From positions 1-29,668 of the forward strand of contig JAZGDW010000062.1 of the NCBI GenBank assembly GCA_036478295.1: DNA of 29,668 nt, in the 5' to 3' direction. This DNA comes from Candidatus Krumholzibacteriia bacterium (GTDB lineage: Bacteria > Krumholzibacteriota > Krumholzibacteriia > WVZY01). The notes beneath the pieces are model-generated. The model ran no database searches. It saw only the letters and a list, made by a program, of their open reading frames with translations, and was not told the DNA's origin. The translations under genes and the position numbers were made by a program. The stretch's first letter is position 1, and every line of letters starts with the position of its first letter. Positions 12,476 to 29,668 of the stretch are shown here, in pieces.

Positions 12476-13855
12476 TCAGCTCTGCTTGCGTCGGACGACG
12501 TCGCGGCGTGTGAGACGAAGTTCCTCGAAGCTTTTTGCGGAGATTACGTAGTACCAGTTGGCAAAGCGTGCGTTGAGACCATCGGAAAGCTTCTGTCGCG
12601 CGCGGTTTTTCTCGAGCCACTTCTCGTGCGCATCGTACAACGTCTTGTTCTCCCGGTCGTCAGGCGTCCATACGCTGTCCGGCCTGCTCAGAAAATTGGT
12701 GTTCGCCGGAGATCGTGGTTCGGGGAAACCCGTGCGATCGAATTCCGTCGTGATAAAAAGATAGCGGTTTTCACCCTGGCCATCATTTGTCTCTCCGCCG
12801 GCGCCCGTGCCTGCGGTCACTGCCAACCCCGAACCGTACACAATTTCGCCAAAACGCAGCGTGTAGGTGATGGCATCCCCGATCGTCACCAGCAGCTCAC
12901 CCTCGTTCGACACCAGACGGCCGTCGCGCGTAAAGAAGTACCCCTTGTTCTGGAGTGAAACCATGTCGGTCCGCGTGATGGTGAGACTATCGGTGGACCT
13001 CGTCAGCCTGCTGGACAGACCTTGCGGCTTGGGGCGTACGCCCTCGATCTTGAGCTCGTCAAGCGTGGTCAGCATCTGGCCCAACTTGGTCATGTCGACT
13101 TCCTGATCGTCCGACATTCGGTTGGCGGCCCACACCGCGTCCTCCCTGTCGAGGACGACGACATCGCGCTCGTTCAGTTGTCCCGTCCGTTCGTTGACCG
13201 AATAGTCCTTCAGAGTGATCCGTTCGATATCATCCTTTTCGACCCCAAGCAAATCCGCCTCGATCCAGTCACTAAAGCGGGTGGAAATATCGATATCCAT
13301 TCGTACCGCATAGACCCGTTTCTGCCCGGGCACCCGCACAAAACGAAAGTCTTCCCGGCCTTCCACTGTCTTGCCCACGATGAAATCGGCCAGCACCAGG
13401 TCGTTATCGCCCTTGATCGTGACGCGCTGCCCGCGACCTTTGGGACTGGTCGCAGTCTCATCGAGAGGATCGACAACATCACACGCTTCGTGGTCCGACA
13501 CATTATCGGTGCGAAAATCATCCTTGCGGATCCCGATGACTCCGGCGGCGGTTTTCGCCAGCCGATCCTTGCCGTCGGCGGGGTGATCATGATGAGACGG
13601 GATCGACCAGCGTCCGTCCTTGAACGTCACCTTGAACGGTTTGGCCGAGCCGGTGTCCTGGTCGAAATCGATCACTTCCAGCGTGCGCGCGGCGTTGGGG
13701 TCGGTGAATTCCGGAAAAAACGGTTCTCCCTGGTCGAGAAACGCGTTCGGTGTAATCTTTCTGGGCGCGGTAACCAGAGCCAGGGCGGCGAGAACGATCG
13801 CCACGGCTGCAAAGATAAGCGTCTTCCTGGTTTCGCCCACAAACATGGCCGTCAT
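12476..13855 (-). CDS. DUF4340-family protein
   Basis: Single N-terminal TM; DGRWSIPSHHDHPAD, DFIVGK..RFVRVPGQKRVY, TRFSDWIEADLL; typical position after GldA/F/G-type genes. Confidence 0.75.
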   Translation of the reverse strand: MTAMFVGETRKTLIFAAVAIVLAALALVTAPRKITPNAFLDQGEPFFPEFTDPNAARTLEVIDFDQDTGSAKPFKVTFKDGRWSIPSHHDHPADGKDRLAKTAAGVIGIRKDDFRTDNVSDHEACDVVDPLDETATSPKGRGQRVTIKGDNDLVLADFIVGKTVEGREDFRFVRVPGQKRVYAVRMDIDISTRFSDWIEADLLGVEKDDIERITLKDYSVNERTGQLNERDVVVLDREDAVWAANRMSDDQEVDMTKLGQMLTTLDELKIEGVRPKPQGLSSRLTRSTDSLTITRTDMVSLQNKGYFFTRDGRLVSNEGELLVTIGDAITYTLRFGEIVYGSGLAVTAGTGAGGETNDGQGENRYLFITTEFDRTGFPEPRSPANTNFLSRPDSVWTPDDRENKTLYDAHEKWLEKNRARQKLSDGLNARFANWYYVISAKSFEELRLTRRDVVRRKQS

Positions 13856-13857
13856 GG

Positions 13858-16506
13858 TCAGTTTCTCAGCCTCCTCACCGCCGCCGCGCCCTCTTTTTCG
13901 CGGCGGCGCCTGCGCAGGAAAACCATCGTGCCCATGACGAATATGGGGATTGGAGGCAGCAGGCCGGCCATGGTCTTTATGCCGCTTTGAATGCTGCGAA
14001 TCTGCGTCTCCATGACCTCCTTGCTGCGTTGGATTTTTATATCCCGCTCGGCGTTAATGTTGGCCTTGAGAGTCTCAAAGCGACGGTTCTCTACTTCCTG
14101 CAGGTTCCTGGCCATAATCTGTTTGGTCTGCTCGTCCAGGTCCGCGCGTTGCTGGACCTCGGCCACCTTCTGGTTGAGGCGCTGCTGGGCCTCGTTCAAT
14201 GCCTGCTGGGCTTCGATTTCCGCCTCCTGTTCTTCCCGGTTGCGGCGCTCGGCATAGGCCCGGGTCTTTGCCTCGACGGCCTCCAGCGTGCGATGCTTGA
14301 CTCGTCGCTTGCGCAACGACATGAACGACTCGTCCCCGACCATGACATCAATGCAGTTCAGGAAGAACGTAATGTTATCGAAGTTCAGGTTTTCGATTCC
14401 CATACGCCGAATTTGAAAGAACTGGTCGGAAATGAAATCAAGATCTGCGATCACGGTGACGTTTATCCCGGGCACCGTGTCCGTGCCGCCCGCAACGTGC
14501 GCCGCGAAGGCATATTCCACTTTCGTGGGACGGTGGGGCAGGTTGCGACCAACGAGCTGCACGCCACCAAAAAAGTTTCTCTGCACCAACTGGCGGTAGT
14601 CGAGCGAGCCCGACACCTGACCCGAGTTCAGAATCGGTTCGAAGCTAAAGCTCGAACTCGCCGCCTTGCGTAGCGTGCCCGGGTACAGCAGAACCAATTC
14701 CTGCAGGCCCGCGCTGGCCGTGAAGTTCTCGCTGAACGCCTGCGGGTTGCCACCGCCCTGACCCACGAACACGATCTCCGGGGGCAGGCTTGCCAGGTCG
14801 GGGTGCGGGTTGTAGCCGTCCCAGATGACCTGCCCGGGATTCCACTGCACGCCGATGCTCGACATCAGGCCGTTGATGTCTCCCTTTGGTTTCGGCGGGG
14901 GACTTTGGCCGCGGTTGAACGGGTTGGTGTTCGCGCCGCTTTTCTCCAGCGGAGCGAGACCGATGTTGACCACGGGCACCGGGTCCACCAGCAACAGCGT
15001 TGGATGGCCAGCCCCGATATACGCCTGCAGGACATCCATCTCTTCCTGCGGCAGAGACGACGGCAGGGCCACCACCAGACCGTCGAGTTCCTCCGCGATG
15101 GAGTCCGTCGCGGATATCTGGACGACCTCGTACTGCTTCTTGAGTTCGTTGACCACCGGCCACGCCGGTTGGCTCTGGAACGTATTGAAATCAAACCCAC
15201 CGAAGAGGTTGATCTGTGTGTTCAACACACCGATTTTCTTGCGCTGCGTGCGCGCGACCACGCGTATACTCCGGACCAGTTCATACTCCGTGGGCAGGCC
15301 GCGGTCGAAAAACGGAATCACGTCTTCTTCCGCTCCGCAGGTAACGGCCACGCCGAGGAATACTTGTGACAACTCCGCGCGGCTCGCGACGGACGGGACC
15401 TCTACGGGTCCGATCCCAAACTTTTCACGGGCGTCCCTTGCCTCCGGGCTGAATAGTTCTGTGTCGTGGATCAAAACCTGGACCTTGCTGCCCCCCACCG
15501 CGTCGATTTCCTTCAGGAAGCCGTAGAGGTTCGCGCGGGTCTGGATGTAGGTTTCGGGTACATCCTTGCTCAGATAGGCCTGGATCAGCACCGGTCTGTC
15601 ATCGGACAGTTCTTTTATCAAACGCTTCGTCTCACCGGACAGCGAGTGCAGTTTGCCCGCCGTGAAATCCGCGCGCAGGCTCCCGCGGCCGATAATGGTA
15701 TTGAGAGCGATGACAGCGATGACGACCGCCAGAGTCCTGACCGTCGCGTGCACCCACATCTTGACACCGTCTGCCTGCGGCGGCCAGTGGCGGCGCCCCA
15801 GCATCACGATATTCAGGTAGAGCATCGTCGCTGCCACGGAGACGAAATAGAGCAAGCCGGAAAAACTGACCACACCACTCGCAAAATCGCCGAAATGGTC
15901 GAACACGGCCAGCGGCGCGACCCAACTCTCGGCCGGCCGGCCGAGGACGCCCATGACCGGTCCGATGTAGACGAACGTCGAGCACAGCACGGCCCCCAGG
16001 ATGAAGGCGATGGTCACGTTGGCACTGAGCATCGACGCCAGCATTCCCGTAGCAATGAACGCCGCTCCAATCAGCCAGTAGCCGAAGTAATTCGCGACCA
16101 TCAGCCCGAGGTCCGGGTTGCCCAGCCAGAACAACACAACCAGGTGGCTCAACGAGAGCACCAGCGCCGCCGAGTAGATACCCAACGTCGAGAGGTACTT
16201 GCCGAGGACCACCTCGAGGTCTGTGGCTGGCAGCGTGAGGAGCAGCTCATCGGTCCCCTGCTTGCGTTCATCGGCCCACACCCCCATGGTGATGGCGGGC
16301 ACGAAGAAGAGGAGCAAGTAGGGAAACAGGTTATTCAGCTGATCAAGATTGGCAAGATTGTTCAGAAAAAAACGCGTTTGCCAGAACGCCGCAGCCGCGC
16401 TCAAAAAAATGAACAGGGTGATGAACACGTAACCCGTTGGGTTGCTGAAGTACAGCTTCAGGTCACGCTTGCACAGCGCCTTGATTACTCTAACGTTGAT
16501 TTCCAT
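13858..16506 (-). CDS. Fused GldF-like ABC-2 permease / GldG-like extracytoplasmic protein
   Basis: LKLYFSNPTGYVF, PAITMGVWADERKQGTDELLLTLP, VVLGKYL; then DFTAGKLHSLSGETK, EYELVRSI, VIADLDFISD; coiled coil and C-terminal TM. Confidence 0.85.
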   Translation of the reverse strand: MEINVRVIKALCKRDLKLYFSNPTGYVFITLFIFLSAAAAFWQTRFFLNNLANLDQLNNLFPYLLLFFVPAITMGVWADERKQGTDELLLTLPATDLEVVLGKYLSTLGIYSAALVLSLSHLVVLFWLGNPDLGLMVANYFGYWLIGAAFIATGMLASMLSANVTIAFILGAVLCSTFVYIGPVMGVLGRPAESWVAPLAVFDHFGDFASGVVSFSGLLYFVSVAATMLYLNIVMLGRRHWPPQADGVKMWVHATVRTLAVVIAVIALNTIIGRGSLRADFTAGKLHSLSGETKRLIKELSDDRPVLIQAYLSKDVPETYIQTRANLYGFLKEIDAVGGSKVQVLIHDTELFSPEARDAREKFGIGPVEVPSVASRAELSQVFLGVAVTCGAEEDVIPFFDRGLPTEYELVRSIRVVARTQRKKIGVLNTQINLFGGFDFNTFQSQPAWPVVNELKKQYEVVQISATDSIAEELDGLVVALPSSLPQEEMDVLQAYIGAGHPTLLLVDPVPVVNIGLAPLEKSGANTNPFNRGQSPPPKPKGDINGLMSSIGVQWNPGQVIWDGYNPHPDLASLPPEIVFVGQGGGNPQAFSENFTASAGLQELVLLYPGTLRKAASSSFSFEPILNSGQVSGSLDYRQLVQRNFFGGVQLVGRNLPHRPTKVEYAFAAHVAGGTDTVPGINVTVIADLDFISDQFFQIRRMGIENLNFDNITFFLNCIDVMVGDESFMSLRKRRVKHRTLEAVEAKTRAYAERRNREEQEAEIEAQQALNEAQQRLNQKVAEVQQRADLDEQTKQIMARNLQEVENRRFETLKANINAERDIKIQRSKEVMETQIRSIQSGIKTMAGLLPPIPIFVMGTMVFLRRRRREKEGAAAVRRLRN

Positions 16507-17305
16507 CGCCGTCCGGTTTGGTTTCCCGTGAAGAGATCGGCCTTCCGTAGTTCGTCATGCGATAAAAAGGCTTTTCGAGCTTTCCGTCCTCCTTGAGCTC
16601 CTCCGGGGAACCGTCGAAGATCAACCGGCCCTCGTGAATGAGAAGCACACGGTCCGCCACCGCCTCGACTTCCTGCAGGATATGGGTCGAGATCAAGATC
16701 GTCTTGGTTTTGCCGAACTCCAGCAGGTTCTCGCGGAAATCACGGATCTGGTTCGGGTCCAGGCCGGCAGTCGGTTCGTCCAGAACGAGCACGTCGGGAT
16801 CGTGCAGCAGAGCCTGCGCCAGGCCAACCCGCTGGCGGTATCCCTTCGACAACTTGCCGATGGGCTTCTCCAACACTTCACCGAGGGCGCACTGGTGGCT
16901 CACCACGTCGATCCTCCTGGCCAGCACATCCGGTTCCAGACAACGCGCCTCTCCAAAGAACTCGAGGAGACCCCTCGGTGTCATGTCATTATACAGTGGG
17001 CCGTTTTCGGGCAGGTAGCCCATGCGCCCGGCCGCCTGCAGCCGTTTCTCCTGGACATCAAACCCGGCGATACGTGCCCTGCCCTCACTCGGGGCCAGGT
17101 AGCCACAGAGCATCCTCAGGGCCGTCGACTTGCCGGCCCCGTTCGGTCCGAGGAACGCCACAACCTGCCCCTCGGGTATGGCAAACGAGACGTCCTTGAC
17201 GGCGACGAACGGGCCGAAGTATCGCGTGAGACCCATGGCCTCGATCATGAGGTTGGGGCCTTCCAGCATGCTCCCGGGCGAATCGATTCTAGGTTTGGAT
17301 TTCAT
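16490..17305 (-). CDS. ABC transporter ATP-binding protein (GldA-like)
   Basis: GPNGAGKST, LSKGYRQR, VLVLDEPT, STH. The true start may be ATG 17248. Confidence 0.92.
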   Translation of the reverse strand: MKSKPRIDSPGSMLEGPNLMIEAMGLTRYFGPFVAVKDVSFAIPEGQVVAFLGPNGAGKSTALRMLCGYLAPSEGRARIAGFDVQEKRLQAAGRMGYLPENGPLYNDMTPRGLLEFFGEARCLEPDVLARRIDVVSHQCALGEVLEKPIGKLSKGYRQRVGLAQALLHDPDVLVLDEPTAGLDPNQIRDFRENLLEFGKTKTILISTHILQEVEAVADRVLLIHEGRLIFDGSPEELKEDGKLEKPFYRMTNYGRPISSRETKPDGDGNQR

Positions 17306-23097: not shown

Positions 23098-23760
23098 CTA
23101 CCCGGCGCCAACTACCATCGTAATCCCCAACGCCGGCGGATTGGCTTTACTCCCGCGGGCACGCCCTCGCGAGTGGTCCAGCCGGAAACACCAGTCTTCC
23201 TTTCGAACTGAAAACGTCAGGCGGTAATCGAGCGTGAGCGGCAAGGCAGCTTCGAAGGCGTCCTCGAGGTAGCGCACGGTGCGGGGGTGCCGCCTGAACG
23301 CCCGCAATTGGCGCACACTCAATTCGACCCTGATATCCAGAGTCGGCACGGCCTCCGCGCTAGCGTTTCCCAACACCATGCTCCGGCTCAACCGGCACTT
23401 AGCGCTGTCCCCGAGCGTCAAACCGTCACGCACCGGGCACGACTCTTTTTCGAATACGATGTTCGACTCCACACGAATGCCGTCGGCCGCCTTCAGGTCC
23501 TCCTTGTTTCTCGACAGGAGGATCTTGAACGCCAGGACGATGACCTCTCGGACCAGCGTTCCCACACTCTCGAGATCGTTCGCGTCGGAAAGCATGTAGA
23601 CCCTGAGCAGCCGCCGGGCGTGGTACTCGAAATACGACTTTGCGAGGTTCTCTTCCGGGCCGGCTTCTTCACGACTCGACTGCTCGGCAAGGATGGAATA
23701 GTCCCTCCGTATGTAACGGTTGCCGTATGAGCTCCTTGAAACGGGAATGCCTGTCTTCAT
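23098..23760 (-). CDS. Divergent, short TssG-like baseplate protein
   Basis: TLGDSAKCRLSRSMVLG...LDIRV.L...F...LPLTLDYRLTF...LGITM matches the TssG C-terminal LG-repeat pattern; follows the TssF-like gene. Confidence 0.6.
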   Translation of the reverse strand: MKTGIPVSRSSYGNRYIRRDYSILAEQSSREEAGPEENLAKSYFEYHARRLLRVYMLSDANDLESVGTLVREVIVLAFKILLSRNKEDLKAADGIRVESNIVFEKESCPVRDGLTLGDSAKCRLSRSMVLGNASAEAVPTLDIRVELSVRQLRAFRRHPRTVRYLEDAFEAALPLTLDYRLTFSVRKEDWCFRLDHSRGRARGSKANPPALGITMVVGAG

Positions 23761-23773
23761 CCGCTTCTCCCGT

Positions 23774-25294
23774 CTACCGAACTTGCAACACTACCTGGCT
23801 GCCGACCGGCGACCGGTCATCGACAAAACTCTGAATGGTTTCGACATGTCCCTTGGTGAGCGGCTTGCCACGCTTGCTTTGAAGATAGACCACGGTCACG
23901 CGTCTCCGGGCGCCATCGACCACACGGAGTTCGGTGACCGGGTTCTCTATCTCTACATCCTCGTATCCCAGCTTTTCGACGAGATCACCGATGATATGAA
24001 GCAGAGAGTCCCTGTAAACCAGGGTTTGTGGCGGGGTGGAATAGGTCAGCATCAACTTGTTGTACCAATCCTTGTCCTTCGAGCGCGGGCAGTCGTATCC
24101 CCCGAAACACGCCATGACGGTCGACGCCTGCTCGAGCAGGATCGACGTTTTCTGCATAGGTTGGATGATCGTGGTCGCGTGATAGCTGTACTCGGCGTCG
24201 TTGACTTCGCTCCCGTGCGTCATCCACAGGAACAGCTGTTTGGTTTTCTTGGTGTTCTTCTCTCCGGGAAGATCGTAATTGGTCAAGGTCGTGCCGCCGC
24301 GGTCTATCTCGAGGGTGAAGAGATTCGCGTATGACTCGACGGGCTCGATCCGCTGGTCGTTCTTGTTACCGGCTTTGCGGTACGGAAAAATCCCCGCCGC
24401 GCCGAGCGGCTTCATGCCCGCCGTCGACACGCATTCCGCGAAACTGTCGTCGAGCTCCCAGGCTTTCAGATCGACGTTCATGACCGGGAGCGCGTTGCCG
24501 AATATCGAAATCCCCGACAGGTCGGGATTTCCCAACCCAGCCTCTTGGTACAAGTCACGCAGAGCGTCTTCCGGGAACCGGAAGCGCAGCGACACGGTCT
24601 CGGACTCTATCTCAAGCTTGCGACCGTCAGGCAACGTATGGTACGGCTCCATCACCAGTTTGAAAATAAAGGGCGAAATCAGCTTGGAGGCGTAGTTCAG
24701 CGGGAAACGGATACCGGCAACCGACGGGCTGGCCACCCACGACGGGCCGGCCCAGTCCGGAGACAGGGGGATCTCGTGATTGTTGAACTGGAGGAACACT
24801 TCGAGCCTCCGTGCATACAGTTCGAGCACGCGGCTTATCTCGAGCAACTCCGAGGCGTGCCAGCCACGCCCCTCTCTCTCCGCATCCCAGGGGAGAAATG
24901 CGAAGGAGATCACGGATTTCTCCCAGCGATCCTTCAGCCTCAGGTCCAACGACTTTTCGAATCTGGAACTCTGTTTACCCGGGGTGATGTCGATCAGCGG
25001 GATAGTAATGTCACCAATGGGTGTGAAGAACACGGCCTGCGGGTCTCCATCCGTGTTCGTGTCCGTTCTCGAGCGCAACGCCACCAGGTCGCCCGTCCGC
25101 CATCGCTCAGCGTTCGGACGGGTTCGGGTTTTCCAGGATTGGCTGGACACGATCGAAACCGCCGGCAAGGCGGCACAGCCCGGAATAAAAAGCCCGGCGG
25201 CATCCTGGATGAAGTCTCCCAGAACTCGCGGGCTCGTTAGGCTCTGTACTTCGGAAATCAGGCGGTCGAAATGGCTCCCAGCTTCGCTCGTCAT
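23774..25294 (-). CDS. Divergent TssF-like baseplate protein
   Basis: LFIPGCAALPAVSIV (cf. L.P....P.PA..I), NALPVMNV (cf. NCxPxxN), WMTHGSEVN, FGG, and an LVYRDSL-type C-terminal region. Confidence 0.62.
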   Translation of the reverse strand: MTSEAGSHFDRLISEVQSLTSPRVLGDFIQDAAGLFIPGCAALPAVSIVSSQSWKTRTRPNAERWRTGDLVALRSRTDTNTDGDPQAVFFTPIGDITIPLIDITPGKQSSRFEKSLDLRLKDRWEKSVISFAFLPWDAEREGRGWHASELLEISRVLELYARRLEVFLQFNNHEIPLSPDWAGPSWVASPSVAGIRFPLNYASKLISPFIFKLVMEPYHTLPDGRKLEIESETVSLRFRFPEDALRDLYQEAGLGNPDLSGISIFGNALPVMNVDLKAWELDDSFAECVSTAGMKPLGAAGIFPYRKAGNKNDQRIEPVESYANLFTLEIDRGGTTLTNYDLPGEKNTKKTKQLFLWMTHGSEVNDAEYSYHATTIIQPMQKTSILLEQASTVMACFGGYDCPRSKDKDWYNKLMLTYSTPPQTLVYRDSLLHIIGDLVEKLGYEDVEIENPVTELRVVDGARRRVTVVYLQSKRGKPLTKGHVETIQSFVDDRSPVGSQVVLQVR

Positions 25295-25306
25295 GTCGCG
25301 ACCATC

Positions 25307-26965
25307 CTAACCCGCATCGATCTGCGACGCCTTTAGCGCGATCTTGGTGGCGGTCTGGGCGATCTCGGCGGTCTTGATCTCGATGTCGCTTCCCTCCGCG
25401 CTGTCGATCTTGACCTTGCCCTGCTCCAGCGACACCGTCTGCCCGTTCGCGGTCGTAATCACGATCTTGTCGTCCTGGATCTCGATCGTACCCCCGCTGC
25501 CGTCTCCCGTACCGATGACGATCTTGTCCGGCAAGATTTCCATGGTACTGCCCCCGCCGTCGACCTCGTTCTTGAACTTGATGTTGTTCTCGCCGATGGT
25601 CAAGGTCTGCCCCTGAACGGTCTTGAAGAAAAAAGATGCGGCGTTGTCCTCGACCTCGAAGCCGGCGGGCACACTCCCAATGACGACCGGGTCCATGTCT
25701 ACCTGGCCCCACAGCACGAGCACGATATCATCGAGTTCGGGGGGAATATAGAGCGCATGCTCCTCTCCCCACGACGGCGTGGCCACGCGCAGCCACGGCG
25801 TGACCGAGCGCAGTTTGTCCCAGGCAAACTCGACCTTTACACGATTATACTTGAGGGGGTCGTTTTCGCTGGTGTCCACGACAGTTGCTGCTGAGGCGAT
25901 CAATCTCCGATCGGGCCATTCCTTTTCGGGATACAACCCTTCCAGGTTCGCCGCCTCGAACTGCCACGAACTTTCATCAGCGCGGTAGTCGTGGTAGCCG
26001 TTGATCGAGCGGATGAAAGCGGTCTCCAGATCCTTGCCGGAGCCATCCGCCGGGTCCAACACGGCGATCTGCACCTCCGAGCCCACCGGGACCGGCGTTC
26101 TCAACGTGCCTTGCACGAGGAAACGCCCATGGGCGTGCGCCCTGAGGAAATGCTCTCCCCAGCGTTTTCTCGCGTCGTACCCGGCGTCCTCGTGGATCAC
26201 GTGAAAGGATTCGTCCCCCTGGTTCTTCTTCCGAATATCGATCAGGGAGTCCTGGACCTTGCCGAATCCAAACGGGGCCTTTTCCAACTCGACGTCGGTG
26301 GACTGGGCGTTGTTGTTCTCGACGTAGGGATGGGTTTCCACCGTGACCTTCTCGGGGCCGAGTTCGGTGCGTATCGTATAGTCGGTGATTTCCTTGCGCA
26401 GTCTGAGAACCGGTGAGAAGCTCTCACCCTGCTGGCTCTGCAGGGCGGTCAGCCCGGTGGCGACGAAAATCTTGCCCGCCGAACACCAGATCTGACCGCC
26501 TATTCCATGCAGCAACCGCTTGAGGAAGTCCAGGTTGGATTCCTGGTACTGGATGGCGAGGTTGATCATGTAGGAATCGCAACCCGCCAGGCACTCGTGA
26601 GGTACGCCGCTGGGGATCAGTGTGCCCAGCACATCACTGAGCGACTGGTCGACGAACACTTGCGACGTATGTGTCTGCGCGAGGCGCGACATCGCATCTC
26701 GGAGAATCAGGCGGAATCCCGACTCGCTGTCGAACTCCAGAGCTTCCACCGTGCCTGTGAATTTCCAATCCTCGACCCGGCAGGTGAACTCCTGTCCGAA
26801 GAACTCCTGCAGCTCTGCGTGTGCGGCCAGCTCGGAGTCCGGCATCCCTTTTGAGGGGTGCAGCGTCACGCTCAGCGACCCTACCTCGCCGATCGTCTGT
26901 CGGACCTCAAAGCCGCGCACCGAGTACGACTCGAGAAACTTCGGCTTCTCTTCGAAGGTCAACAC
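25307..26965 (-). CDS. vgrG: VgrG/TssI-like spike protein (gp27-gp5 fusion)
   Basis: QYQESNLDFLKRL; OB-fold DPLKYNRVKVEFAW...TPWLRVATP...IPPELDDIVLV...PVVIGSV; short beta-strand repeat C-terminus. Confidence 0.88.
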   Translation of the reverse strand: MLTFEEKPKFLESYSVRGFEVRQTIGEVGSLSVTLHPSKGMPDSELAAHAELQEFFGQEFTCRVEDWKFTGTVEALEFDSESGFRLILRDAMSRLAQTHTSQVFVDQSLSDVLGTLIPSGVPHECLAGCDSYMINLAIQYQESNLDFLKRLLHGIGGQIWCSAGKIFVATGLTALQSQQGESFSPVLRLRKEITDYTIRTELGPEKVTVETHPYVENNNAQSTDVELEKAPFGFGKVQDSLIDIRKKNQGDESFHVIHEDAGYDARKRWGEHFLRAHAHGRFLVQGTLRTPVPVGSEVQIAVLDPADGSGKDLETAFIRSINGYHDYRADESSWQFEAANLEGLYPEKEWPDRRLIASAATVVDTSENDPLKYNRVKVEFAWDKLRSVTPWLRVATPSWGEEHALYIPPELDDIVLVLWGQVDMDPVVIGSVPAGFEVEDNAASFFFKTVQGQTLTIGENNIKFKNEVDGGGSTMEILPDKIVIGTGDGSGGTIEIQDDKIVITTANGQTVSLEQGKVKIDSAEGSDIEIKTAEIAQTATKIALKASQIDAG

Positions 26966-27015
26966 TTCAGCAACCTCTCACCATCGGTTAGGGTATCGCT
27001 ACCCGCTGTTCGATG

Positions 27016-27441
27016 CTACACACCAAACAGTTCGTTTCGACGCGGGTGGTCAAATTCCACACCCGAGATCTTCATTTCCGACGAGATGACCGTAAAACTC
27101 AAGTTGAACTTCTCGTCATGAATGGAGAAACTGCTGTCGATGTCACCCAACCAGGCCTTGGAGAACTCGACGGTCTGGATCGACTCGCCCACCGGCTTGT
27201 CGTCCCGTCCCTTGAATACCTGTATGATACCGGATCCTTTGCTTTCGGCATCGGCGTGCTGTGCCGACGCGTATTCGTACAGGTCCTTGGCCGGTTCTGC
27301 TCCCGGCGGGAGTTCCAGGTTGACACGGATCTCGCCCGGCGCGCAGTTGGCCAGTTGGCCTCCGCCGACCGTCTCGACTGACACGTCAAAGTTCGTAACC
27401 TTGTATTCCGCGCCCGAACCCAGCTTGAACTTGATAACCAT
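27016..27441 (-). CDS. TssD/Hcp-like tube protein (Bacteroidota T6SS-iii type)
   Basis: 141 aa. The pattern GEIRVNLE...GSGIIQVFKG...QTVEFSKAWL...LSFTVISSEMKISGVEF parallels Bacteroidota TssD (GGxI...SGxIxF...ELxWENGY...FVVSAQxIKIG). Strong AAGGAGG RBS. Confidence 0.78.
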   Translation of the reverse strand: MVIKFKLGSGAEYKVTNFDVSVETVGGGQLANCAPGEIRVNLELPPGAEPAKDLYEYASAQHADAESKGSGIIQVFKGRDDKPVGESIQTVEFSKAWLGDIDSSFSIHDEKFNLSFTVISSEMKISGVEFDHPRRNELFGV

Positions 27442-27551
27442 GACTTCCTCCTTGAGGTCGATGGGGACGGTGCTTACCGCACCTCCCCGTACAATAGAGT
27501 CACCAACGCAACACGCGCCTTGGCACTTAAATCATGCAGCCCGGGTGCTGT

Positions 27552-28970
27552 TTATTCTTCCGCTGCTTCTTCGTCGCGGCTCTCGGCATCGATCTCGAAC
27601 TCATCGGCGGTGCTCGACCAGCCGACGTTCACCTTGACCTTGAACTTGCCGAGGTCGTCCTTGCTGCACTCCGCAATCTTCCAGCTCTTGATCTGCTTTT
27701 TCTCCTTCATGTCCTGCAGGTATTTCTCAACCTTCGCCCGGATAACCTTCGGCTCCTCCTGGCCACCGACGTAGCGCTCGAGCTCGGTAATCAGAAAGAA
27801 GTAGATCCGGTTGCGGGTCACCCGTGCCTGCGACTGGATCAGAGGCACGGCCTGGTTGCCGAAGGCCTGGATGTCCACCGCGTCCTCGGGAAACGTCGTC
27901 GAACCGCCGTAGATACGAACGCCGGCGTCGGTCGCATCCTGGCTGGCGTTCGTTGTATAAGCGAAGTTGAACTGGTTCGACACCGCATCCTGCCAGGCGC
28001 CGCGCCGATCGACGACGTTGACGGTCTTCATCTCCGTCGGCTTGATCTTCGGGTGAATGATGGGCACGAACCAGTGACCCTTTTTCTCCCGCTGGAAATA
28101 CTTGGTCATCTGCGCGCCGAACGCGTAATTCAGTCCGACGTTCAAAGATTTTTTCTCGTGGTACTCCTCATGCGGGGGACGGACGACGAGTTCGTTTGCC
28201 ACCATCGATGCGTGTGACAGTGCGGATTGCTCCTCTTCGCCCACGCTGTTGATGTTGAACTTCCAGTTACCCACGAGTTTACCCATCGAATCGAGATTGT
28301 CTTCGACCGGCAGGGCTCCGAGGATGTGAAAATGGTAGTTCTCCGCCATGCGCATGTAAGGAATCAGAGACATGGATTCGCCCTCGAGCTTGTCGAAGGG
28401 AAGAAACATGAAGCTTCTGTATTCACCACGGGCGATGTGGAAGTTCGTAGCCTTGACCTCGTGTTCGACCACCTTCTGAAAGGCCGGTTTGATCAAGAAG
28501 TTCGGACCGATCAGAAGCGAGGTCTGGTTCTTGCGCAACGCGGGCGCTTTGGCGTCCAGTGAATTCGCCTTCCACAGGATGATATTGTTCGCCAGTATCT
28601 CCCGCGGGCGCAGCTGCGTGAGCATCTGCCCGACGCCGAGACTGATCGCCGCTTTTAGCTGCTTCTTTGCCTCCCGCAGATTCGTCAGTTCCACCTTCTG
28701 CTGATTTGCCGAATCCAGAGAGTCGGCGATGAGGTTCAACACCTCGGCCATAATCAGTTTTTTCGAATGGGTGAAATTCGGGCTCGTCTTGAGGTCCGCA
28801 TTCGTGGCCCACTTCGCGTTGAGTATGCTCAACTCGTTGTTTTGCTTTGTCTTCGCGTTGAGGATCTCATCCGCACGAGCGGCTGCCTCCTGCTCCAGTG
28901 GCTGGGCGGTTTGCAGCTGTTCGATCGGCTTCCTCGCGGCTTCTGGCTGATTTTCGGGAGCCATCGGCAT
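27552..28970 (-). CDS. TssC-like contractile sheath large subunit
   Basis: HASMVANELVVR (cf. T6SS-iii CNWLVGR); sheath C-domain GVRIYGGSTT...RIYFFLITELERYVG...IRAKVEKYLQDM...KFKVKVNVGW. TAATG overlap with the upstream gene. Confidence 0.7.
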   Translation of the reverse strand: MPMAPENQPEAARKPIEQLQTAQPLEQEAAARADEILNAKTKQNNELSILNAKWATNADLKTSPNFTHSKKLIMAEVLNLIADSLDSANQQKVELTNLREAKKQLKAAISLGVGQMLTQLRPREILANNIILWKANSLDAKAPALRKNQTSLLIGPNFLIKPAFQKVVEHEVKATNFHIARGEYRSFMFLPFDKLEGESMSLIPYMRMAENYHFHILGALPVEDNLDSMGKLVGNWKFNINSVGEEEQSALSHASMVANELVVRPPHEEYHEKKSLNVGLNYAFGAQMTKYFQREKKGHWFVPIIHPKIKPTEMKTVNVVDRRGAWQDAVSNQFNFAYTTNASQDATDAGVRIYGGSTTFPEDAVDIQAFGNQAVPLIQSQARVTRNRIYFFLITELERYVGGQEEPKVIRAKVEKYLQDMKEKKQIKSWKIAECSKDDLGKFKVKVNVGWSSTADEFEIDAESRDEEAAEE

Positions 28971-29662
28971 TATTGACCTCCTTGAAACAACTCATTTACT
29001 TCGTCTTCGGTGAGCCCACCCTTTTGCTTCGCTTCTTCGCTCGTCACCGTGTATTTCATGTAGCGTTCCTTCGTCTCCGCAATGGACCTGGACAGGGTGG
29101 CCTGCGCCCCGTCTGTCTTTGCGTCGACCGCGTTGAGGGCCTCGTCCTGCAGGCTCGCCGCCAGCTCGCGTGCGCGTTGTGCGACGACCTTCTTGTCCTC
29201 ATCGCTCATAGAGCCCCCAAAATCGAGCGTCGAAGGGTCGTTGAGAAAATGGGTGACGGCGTTGAGTTTCGCTTGCAGCTGGGATAGCAAAGTGGATTTC
29301 CAGATCAGATCCTCCGGATCATCGATCCATTTGCTGTCGTCGACACCAAAGCGGTCGCTTTCCGCTTCGCCCAGCGGCTTGAAACCGTCGCCGGTCGGAT
29401 TGATGTAGACGTTGCCGGTGTAATCGGACAGCTTCTCCATGAGACTCTTCAGGCTCTCTTTGCCCTCTTCCTTGGCGAAATCGAGTGAACCGGTCACCGG
29501 ACAACGCTTGAACACGTCGTTCTCGTCCTTCACGCTGCCCAGGTAAACGACATCCGTCATCGCCGGGTCTACGCTGATCCCGAGATTCTGGTCCAGCGGG
29601 CCTTCCGTGGAAGCCTTTTCCACCGGATCACCTTTCTTTATATGAGCACCTTTTCCTGCCAT
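28970..29662 (-). CDS. TssB-like contractile sheath small subunit
   Basis: VVYLGS and IDDPEDLIWKSTLLSQLQAKLNAV (cf. TssB DDFxPxxxxxxxPxLxxL); coupled to the TssC-like gene. An in-frame TAA at 29666-29668 shows the gene is complete. Confidence 0.55.
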   Translation of the reverse strand: MAGKGAHIKKGDPVEKASTEGPLDQNLGISVDPAMTDVVYLGSVKDENDVFKRCPVTGSLDFAKEEGKESLKSLMEKLSDYTGNVYINPTGDGFKPLGEAESDRFGVDDSKWIDDPEDLIWKSTLLSQLQAKLNAVTHFLNDPSTLDFGGSMSDEDKKVVAQRARELAASLQDEALNAVDAKTDGAQATLSRSIAETKERYMKYTVTSEEAKQKGGLTEDEVNELFQGGQ

Positions 29663-29668
29663 GGTTTA

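Follow-up and report, generated by a model that had tools for sequence, protein, structure and literature searches.

In a 2026 review (PMC13584744), type VI secretion systems (T6SSs) are listed as subtypes i–iv, and TssE is described as a conserved baseplate part whose loss abolishes killing in Serratia. The membrane complex of subtype iii, a Bacteroidota system, consists of TssNOPQR, and Bacteroides TssN combines five helices with an EccD-like ubiquitin-fold domain, is encoded beside tssK and co-purifies TssK (PMC10781749). A 2024 survey of >20,000 genomes from outside Bacteroidota detected subtype iii in none of them and did not settle whether replacement or independent gain accounts for the membrane complexes.

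The window analyzed here is an entire contig (C276, 29,668 nucleotides) of a 316-contig Krumholzibacteriota genome rated 91% complete and 5% contaminated. As an earlier note on this DNA had described, six co-oriented, closely spaced ORFs fill positions 23098–29662 of the minus strand, with intergenic gaps of –1, 110, 50, 12 and 13 nt. These six genes, together with five located elsewhere (tssK, X, Y, clpV and PAAR), likely build a divergent T6SS, and we consider it highly probable that the locus encodes a contractile system of this type. The relevant features of the window are:

28970..29662, minus strand: tssB-like ORF (B), 230 aa, labeled by position only
27552..28970, minus strand: TssC, large sheath subunit, highly divergent, 472 aa
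27016..27441, minus strand: Hcp/TssD tube protein, iii-type, 141 aa
25307..26965, minus strand: VgrG/TssI spike, 552 aa
23774..25294, minus strand: TssF baseplate wedge protein, shortened, 506 aa
23098..23760, minus strand: TssG baseplate wedge protein, shortened, 220 aa
23068..23075, minus strand: T8 run where the operon meets a convergent gene, unsupported as a terminator
29663..29668, minus strand: end of the contig, which probably continues into C24

Relative to the related genome G076, substitution rates ranked third > first > second codon position in all six genes, marginally so in tssG (0.51/0.50/0.67 for the first, second and third positions), and a pattern of purifying selection was observed in 10/10 genes compared, so that, judged from these alignments, the six ORFs are real and under purifying selection. 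Among the six products, VgrG alone was above the Pfam cut-off, with Hcp (E 0.012) and TssG (E 2e-4) below it; the other three proteins had no relevant match in Pfam, NCBIfam or PHROGs, and the last two collections added no cut-off pass for any of the six, which agrees with the expectation that only VgrG would be easily recognized and the rest missed by curated profiles. The terminator formerly placed at the operon end was discarded, since the T8 run was not one of the eight sites that the scan returned against a chance expectation of 7.0, and it folded no better than its shuffles (z 0.30). The remainder of the window is of housekeeping type (15 ORFs scanned), including genes for FBPase, FeoB, an ABC transporter and molybdopterin functions. 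An ABC ATPase, an 882-aa ABC_transp_aux/DUF7088 protein and a DUF4340 protein lie in a row at 12476–17305, which we take to be a gliding-type ABC module.

Only 6 nt separate the first ATG from the contig end, and the operon consequently continues outside the window, as had been anticipated. The end of clpV lies in the first bases of contig C24 together with a ribosome-binding motif, which places the clpV stop 20 + 6 = 26 nt from the tssB-like ATG; the corresponding spacings in the closest four intact loci are 26, 26, 27 and 27 nt. No sequence overlap was found between the two contig ends, and from the matching spacing we infer that they probably abut. In the relative G008, four further genes lie upstream of B, and their counterparts, as well as a PAAR gene, were located in the genome of the window:

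C24:21-2375, minus strand: ClpV, two AAA domains, directly before B in 7/7 intact loci
C35:5623-9035: module of TssK-like protein (K), X (411 aa) and Y
C35:7956-9035: TssK (short)
L014:5623-6771 (contig C35): Y
C129:37653-38009: DUF4280 PAAR gene

The Clp protein would act as ClpV/TssH, judging from its position. The K-X-Y module is detached from the main operon in this genome, since unrelated genes lie upstream of clpV on C24. Of the parts that the earlier note had missed, tssK, clpV and PAAR therefore exist elsewhere in the genome, and tssE, tssA and the known membrane complexes were indeed not found by the searches described below. Seven intact loci (G008, G069, G076, G152, L063, L064 and L065, excluding the near-duplicates L055 and L059 and broken loci) share the order tssK-X-Y-clpV-B-C-D-vgrG-(PAAR)-F-G-(PAAR), with weak PAAR labels in L063 and L065, and none of the seven contains a spare gene. 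Their TssC proteins, including that of the single-contig genome G076, are 42–69% identical to the window TssC. An exported 245-aa product is encoded before tssK in G000 and G008; since the other loci lack it at that place, it was not taken as a part.

The TssC family was found in 9/208 genomes of the phylum, spanning four families, and in 46 clusters of a large protein set; among 1.84 billion representatives it had only 14 matches, all at E 6e-11 or stronger, and by these sequence searches it is an isolated family. A single-protein scan of genomes had given no match, and the alignment-based search did. Word-index searches returned at least six proteins with the Hcp profile and at least ten with the X profile, all of their own family. 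X is present in exactly the same 9/208 genomes, a co-occurrence that is not independent because one operon holds both genes in most of them. A B-C-D-vgrG segment also occurs on a 4.1-kb contig (L052) of a Pirellulales-labeled genome in which X was not found; either transfer or misbinning of the contig could explain it, which makes spread beyond the phylum a possibility only.

A search of the phylum for PF17541 uncovered another, iii-like T6SS family, here called family 2. For profile comparisons, this family, present in 22/208 genomes and never together with the window family, served as a bridge; loci from 10 of its 22 genomes were used, together with five Bacteroidota plasmid loci (five of ten Bacteroidota matches). 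In a 9 × 11 hhalign matrix, cognate pairs ranked top and non-cognate pairs reached at most 1.5% (local) and 3.2% (global). The proposal of a T6SS-like system closest to subtype iii was upheld by ESM Atlas, PDB and hhalign comparisons. The top ESM Atlas matches of the 472-aa protein were PF17541 TssC clusters (score 0.97), and hhalign gave 94% against merged iii-type TssC (local, 373 columns, E 1e-7) and 12% against Bacteroidota alone. PF17541 was matched at E ≤ 1 by 0/44 TssC homologues and passed in none of the nine genomes carrying window-type TssC. PF17642 was detected in 11/13 Hcp homologues scanned, two of them above cut-off; the best PDB matches of Hcp were Bacteroidales Hcp proteins (E 0.027), and its hhalign value against the merged references was 96%. 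None of the six proteins matched VipA/VipB or Hcp-i in Pfam. A tandem hcp pair was seen in one metagenome locus (L054:3249-4026), and L063 contains a 714-nt gap 3′ of hcp in which no same-strand ORF reaches 75 aa.

The first ORF is the probable small sheath subunit TssB, by its position between clpV and tssC and its 1–4 nt overlap with tssC in the window and 7/7 intact loci. At 230 aa it is about 80 aa longer than subtype iii TssB (146–155 aa), and it had no match in Pfam, NCBIfam, PHROG or PDB sequences, hhalign values of 0.1–0.4% against TssB sets, and a structure model (pLDDT 49) too poor to read, whose fold search gave no match. The order tssB-C-D-vgrG-F-G put forward previously is accordingly backed by homology for C, D, VgrG, F and G and by position for tssB. 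Profiles of B, C, X, F and K retrieved nothing relevant from PDB sequences.

VgrG, the sole copy found in the genome, matched Phage_GPD (E 3e-12) and Phage_base_V (E 6e-9), reached hhalign values of 99.8–99.9% against the references and presented no visible toxin extension. The TssF model (pLDDT 57) had its best fold matches in two 528–532-residue chains of 6n38 (E 9e-7, TM only 0.26), which are presumably TssF in view of their length; against merged TssF, hhalign gave 40% (local) and 77% (global), and 2% against Bacteroidota alone. TssG matched PF06996 (E 2e-4) and TIGR03347 (E 0.004), both below cut-off, and hhalign gave 93–95% over its C-terminal half and 56% against Bacteroidota alone.

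Missing parts were sought in five genomes, among them a relative whose 4.1-Mb assembly is one contig (rated 91% complete), with one Pfam family per part; this genome-wide panel covered gp25, TssN, TssO, TssR, DotU, IcmF, ImpA_N and Terminase_6N, and TssP and TssQ were compared with X and Y only. TssL (DotU), TssM (IcmF) and TssA (ImpA_N) were above cut-off in 0/5 genomes, with a positive E. coli control, as were TssN, TssO and TssR, the TssR search having no positive control. TssE/gp25 (PF04965) was likewise above cut-off in 0/5 genomes, and a family-2 TssE profile, which found its control in G107, gave nothing significant in 4/4 relatives or G000. The vgrG-tssF gap of 12–16 nt in the window and 6/7 intact loci leaves no room for tssE, the site of the family-2 tssE being occupied in window-type loci by 12–16 nt or PAAR. 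Fusion of TssE to B, to F or to any other component was rejected, as hhalign gave no sign of it in nine proteins. The missing TssE may reflect divergence beyond detection, a warning that PMC10781749 raises for absent TssO/Q. In G152, a sub-cut-off gp25 match (C157:73830-75331, E 7e-5) lies near a second spike-type OB domain away from the main locus, perhaps part of another contractile element.

A released or cytoplasmic contractile particle of the eCIS or tailocin type, to which K-X-Y would be a mere tether or unrelated, could account for the weak Phage_sheath_1C matches of 2/44 TssC homologues and for the unassigned B, and other contractile baseplates, including those of eCIS, ranked behind 6n38 in the TssF fold search. 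We regard it as highly improbable, given that iii-type TssC and Hcp are present along with ClpV and TssK, the latter two being marks of T6SSs and thereby supporting the T6SS reading, and that no PHROG match was obtained. Terminase genes upstream had been named as evidence against a T6SS, and Terminase_6N was above cut-off in 0/5 genomes.

The genes after PAAR or tssG vary between loci, and variable genes follow PAAR in 7/7 intact loci or at their ends. One unnamed family of 395–487 aa (28–30% identical) is encoded next to PAAR in three genomes, its orientation varying, and one member was scanned, with no Pfam match:

L025:1681-2868: unnamed PAAR-side family
L046:16140-17600: unnamed PAAR-side family
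L049:16163-17404: unnamed PAAR-side family

Other loci carry VanY-like or DUF5675-like proteins after PAAR or tssG, and no cargo gene was found in the genome of the window. By position, these PAAR-linked variable genes are candidate effectors. In G008, PAAR is followed by a 510-aa gene without Pfam match (L008:3520-5052), with a Fic-like gene nearby; its C-terminal motif may mark an ADP-ribosyltransferase-like toxin domain, by resemblance. These variable genes also bear on the possibility of a repurposed, non-firing apparatus that, lacking TssE and having a remodeled B, would serve as a static conduit or scaffold instead of a weapon. Such a device would fit the failure to find TssE and TssA, the shortened F and G, the single VgrG and PAAR and the lack of any identified immunity gene; it is nevertheless quite improbable, since PAAR and a strongly conserved ClpV are kept, the PAAR-linked genes vary, and purifying selection extends to every gene compared.

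The most novel part of the system is the K-X-Y module, which lies outside the window. Going by sequence signals, X has two ubiquitin-like repeats followed by one membrane helix and a probable periplasmic part: the single hydrophobic helix was found in 9/9 proteins, the internal repeat was detected at 76% (E 2e-5), ubiquitin-like Pfam families were matched in 2/7, and the structure neighbors in the ESM Atlas, with a best TM of 0.52, either were ubiquitin-like or had no name. K has 353–359 aa, against 359–391 in subtype iii TssK, reaches 97% by hhalign against the merged references, or 98% (global) to iii TssK, and stops where family-2 TssK starts its extra 140 residues. By analogy with the ubiquitin fold of TssN and its link to TssK, and with K as short as iii TssK, X is the likely dock of TssK. 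Against this stands the faint hhalign match of X to TssN (0.75% whole, and 3.1% and 1.8% by repeat). Y, present in eight of the nine carrier genomes (the ninth is broken there), has an N-terminal hydrophobic, signal-like segment and a C-terminal Phe in 11/11 proteins, a glycine-rich hydrophobic stretch near the C-terminus that exceeded the threshold in 5/11, and Ig/TIG-type domain matches. It looks exported, and the terminal Phe is presumably an outer-membrane signal; partial Y-like proteins also occur in four genomes without the system, and the C-terminal end of Y is generic. The Y of the genome analyzed differs from its relatives in its C-terminal half, which has glycine-rich repeats, as if its outer end had been swapped. 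Altogether, X-Y probably forms the anchor of the system, with TssK-X binding as a prediction.

Lone K-X-Y cassettes occur on C35 in the genome analyzed and in G076, where a second copy (L103:7019-10583, G076:C1:2371018-2374583) lies 1.4 Mb from the main locus and is closer, by eye, to the L063/L065 copies than to the main-locus copy, which suggests that the anchors are exchangeable.

The same module admits another explanation, a fast-evolved T6SS-iii in which X is a rearranged TssN, Y stands in for TssP/TssR, and TssE and other parts are too divergent or dispersed to be seen. All assignable parts are nearest to iii-type families, the length of K and its adjacency to X resemble the tssK-tssN arrangement, weak alignments link each X repeat to the C-terminus of TssN (E 0.014 and 0.028), and B is an example of a genuine part going unseen by all profiles. 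We find it unlikely, because X has one helix after its ubiquitin repeats whereas TssN has five helices before a single domain, X and Y reached at most 1.8% by hhalign against TssN/O/P/Q/R, the intact loci have no spare gene, and the trees place the window family apart. In 5/5 trees (ClpV, with support 100/100, VgrG, TssK, Hcp and TssC, the last by FastTree) it forms one side of a long branch, and the Bacteroidota rows group together in 4/5, weakly for VgrG (0.52) and not for Hcp. Within these trees, which hold four to six Bacteroidota references, long branches and no subtype i, ii, iv or eCIS sequences, the family appears to lie outside the Bacteroidota systems for ClpV, VgrG (weakly), TssK and TssC, in keeping with the earlier note, the Hcp tree giving no clear placement. 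Its TssC is 13–19% identical to the Bacteroidota references, the values being 40–64% among those references and 19–29% between family 2 and them; VgrG and TssK are 14–23% and 9–18% identical to T6SS-iii references. The best reading of these sequences is a system related to Bacteroidota subtype iii yet outside it; given the few references and long branches, it may also be an offshoot of the iii stem that evolved fast.

We lean with some confidence toward reading the locus as the tail and baseplate of a cell-anchored T6SS of a separate lineage, in which TssK would dock on X-Y in place of TssJLM or TssNOPQR. TssF-TssG-TssK wedges would assemble around VgrG-PAAR without a recognizable TssE or TssA, and Hcp rings and the putative B-C sheath would then polymerize. 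On the cytoplasmic side, TssK would bind the pair of ubiquitin-like repeats of X, much as TssK of subtype iii does with TssN; X would be an inner-membrane protein whose periplasmic part meets the exported Y, and Y would be lodged in the outer membrane by its C-terminal hydrophobic stretch and final Phe. Contraction would drive the tube, the spike and the variable PAAR-side cargo into neighboring cells, and ClpV would recycle the sheath. The chances seem evenly balanced that this is a new subtype with the smallest parts list, defined by a TssE-less baseplate, a remodeled B and an independently recruited two-protein X-Y channel swappable as K-X-Y.

In comparison with known systems, T6SS-i of Pseudomonadota, anchored by TssJLM, shares the match of the TssF model to the TssKFG structure 6n38 and the weak Pfam matches of TssG and TssK, and differs in that no TssL, TssM or TssA match was obtained here in five genomes. 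With T6SS-ii, T6SS-iv and eCIS, contractile tail parts are generally held in common, and the system is set apart by general features: T6SS-ii and iv are not known to have a ClpV of this kind, eCIS are not known to have TssK or ClpV, and the eCIS sheath is one-piece. The likeness to T6SS-iii includes PF17541 and PF17642 as the nearest families of TssC and TssD, a short TssK, ClpV, the absence of TssA and TssJLM, a DUF4280 PAAR and a ubiquitin-fold membrane protein beside tssK; in contrast, the window family has no TssE and no TssN/O/P/Q/R match, two envelope genes instead of five, a B of about 230 aa rather than 146–155, shorter F and G, and Krumholzibacteriota rather than Bacteroidota hosts. 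It falls outside T6SS-iii on TssE, TssN/O/R, TssC profile and host. No description of it was found in the literature searched, a scope that excluded most subscription papers, and we consider it a candidate new T6SS subtype.

Family 2, of which no description was found in the literature searched either, shares the order clpV-B-C-D-vgrG-...-F-G, whereas it passes PF17541, keeps TssE, has a long TssK of about 483 aa and carries two membrane proteins, one of 309 aa and one of the Double-GTPase2 type, in place of X-Y. Its loci (L080-L099, e.g. L086:6338-18809; genomes including G067, G070, G093, G107, G109, G117, G049, G058 and G066) read clpV-B-C-D-vgrG-E-F-G-K followed by these two genes; in most loci examined, a convergent CsgG-like/TPR and LamG operon then follows. 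A third, deeper iii-like locus in G203 (L088:13125-L089:6094) has a TssC of only 61 bits and yet another set of genes downstream of tssK, and some of its ORFs look broken. The window family sits outside the four-clade scheme, goes unrecognized by curated profiles, and would provide a third anchor, made of two genes, and a natural TssE-less baseplate, so that the adaptation of TssK to different anchors and the need for TssE become testable with small soluble parts. If the reading as a new subtype holds, iii-type tails, with family 2 included, would have acquired membrane anchors at least three times.
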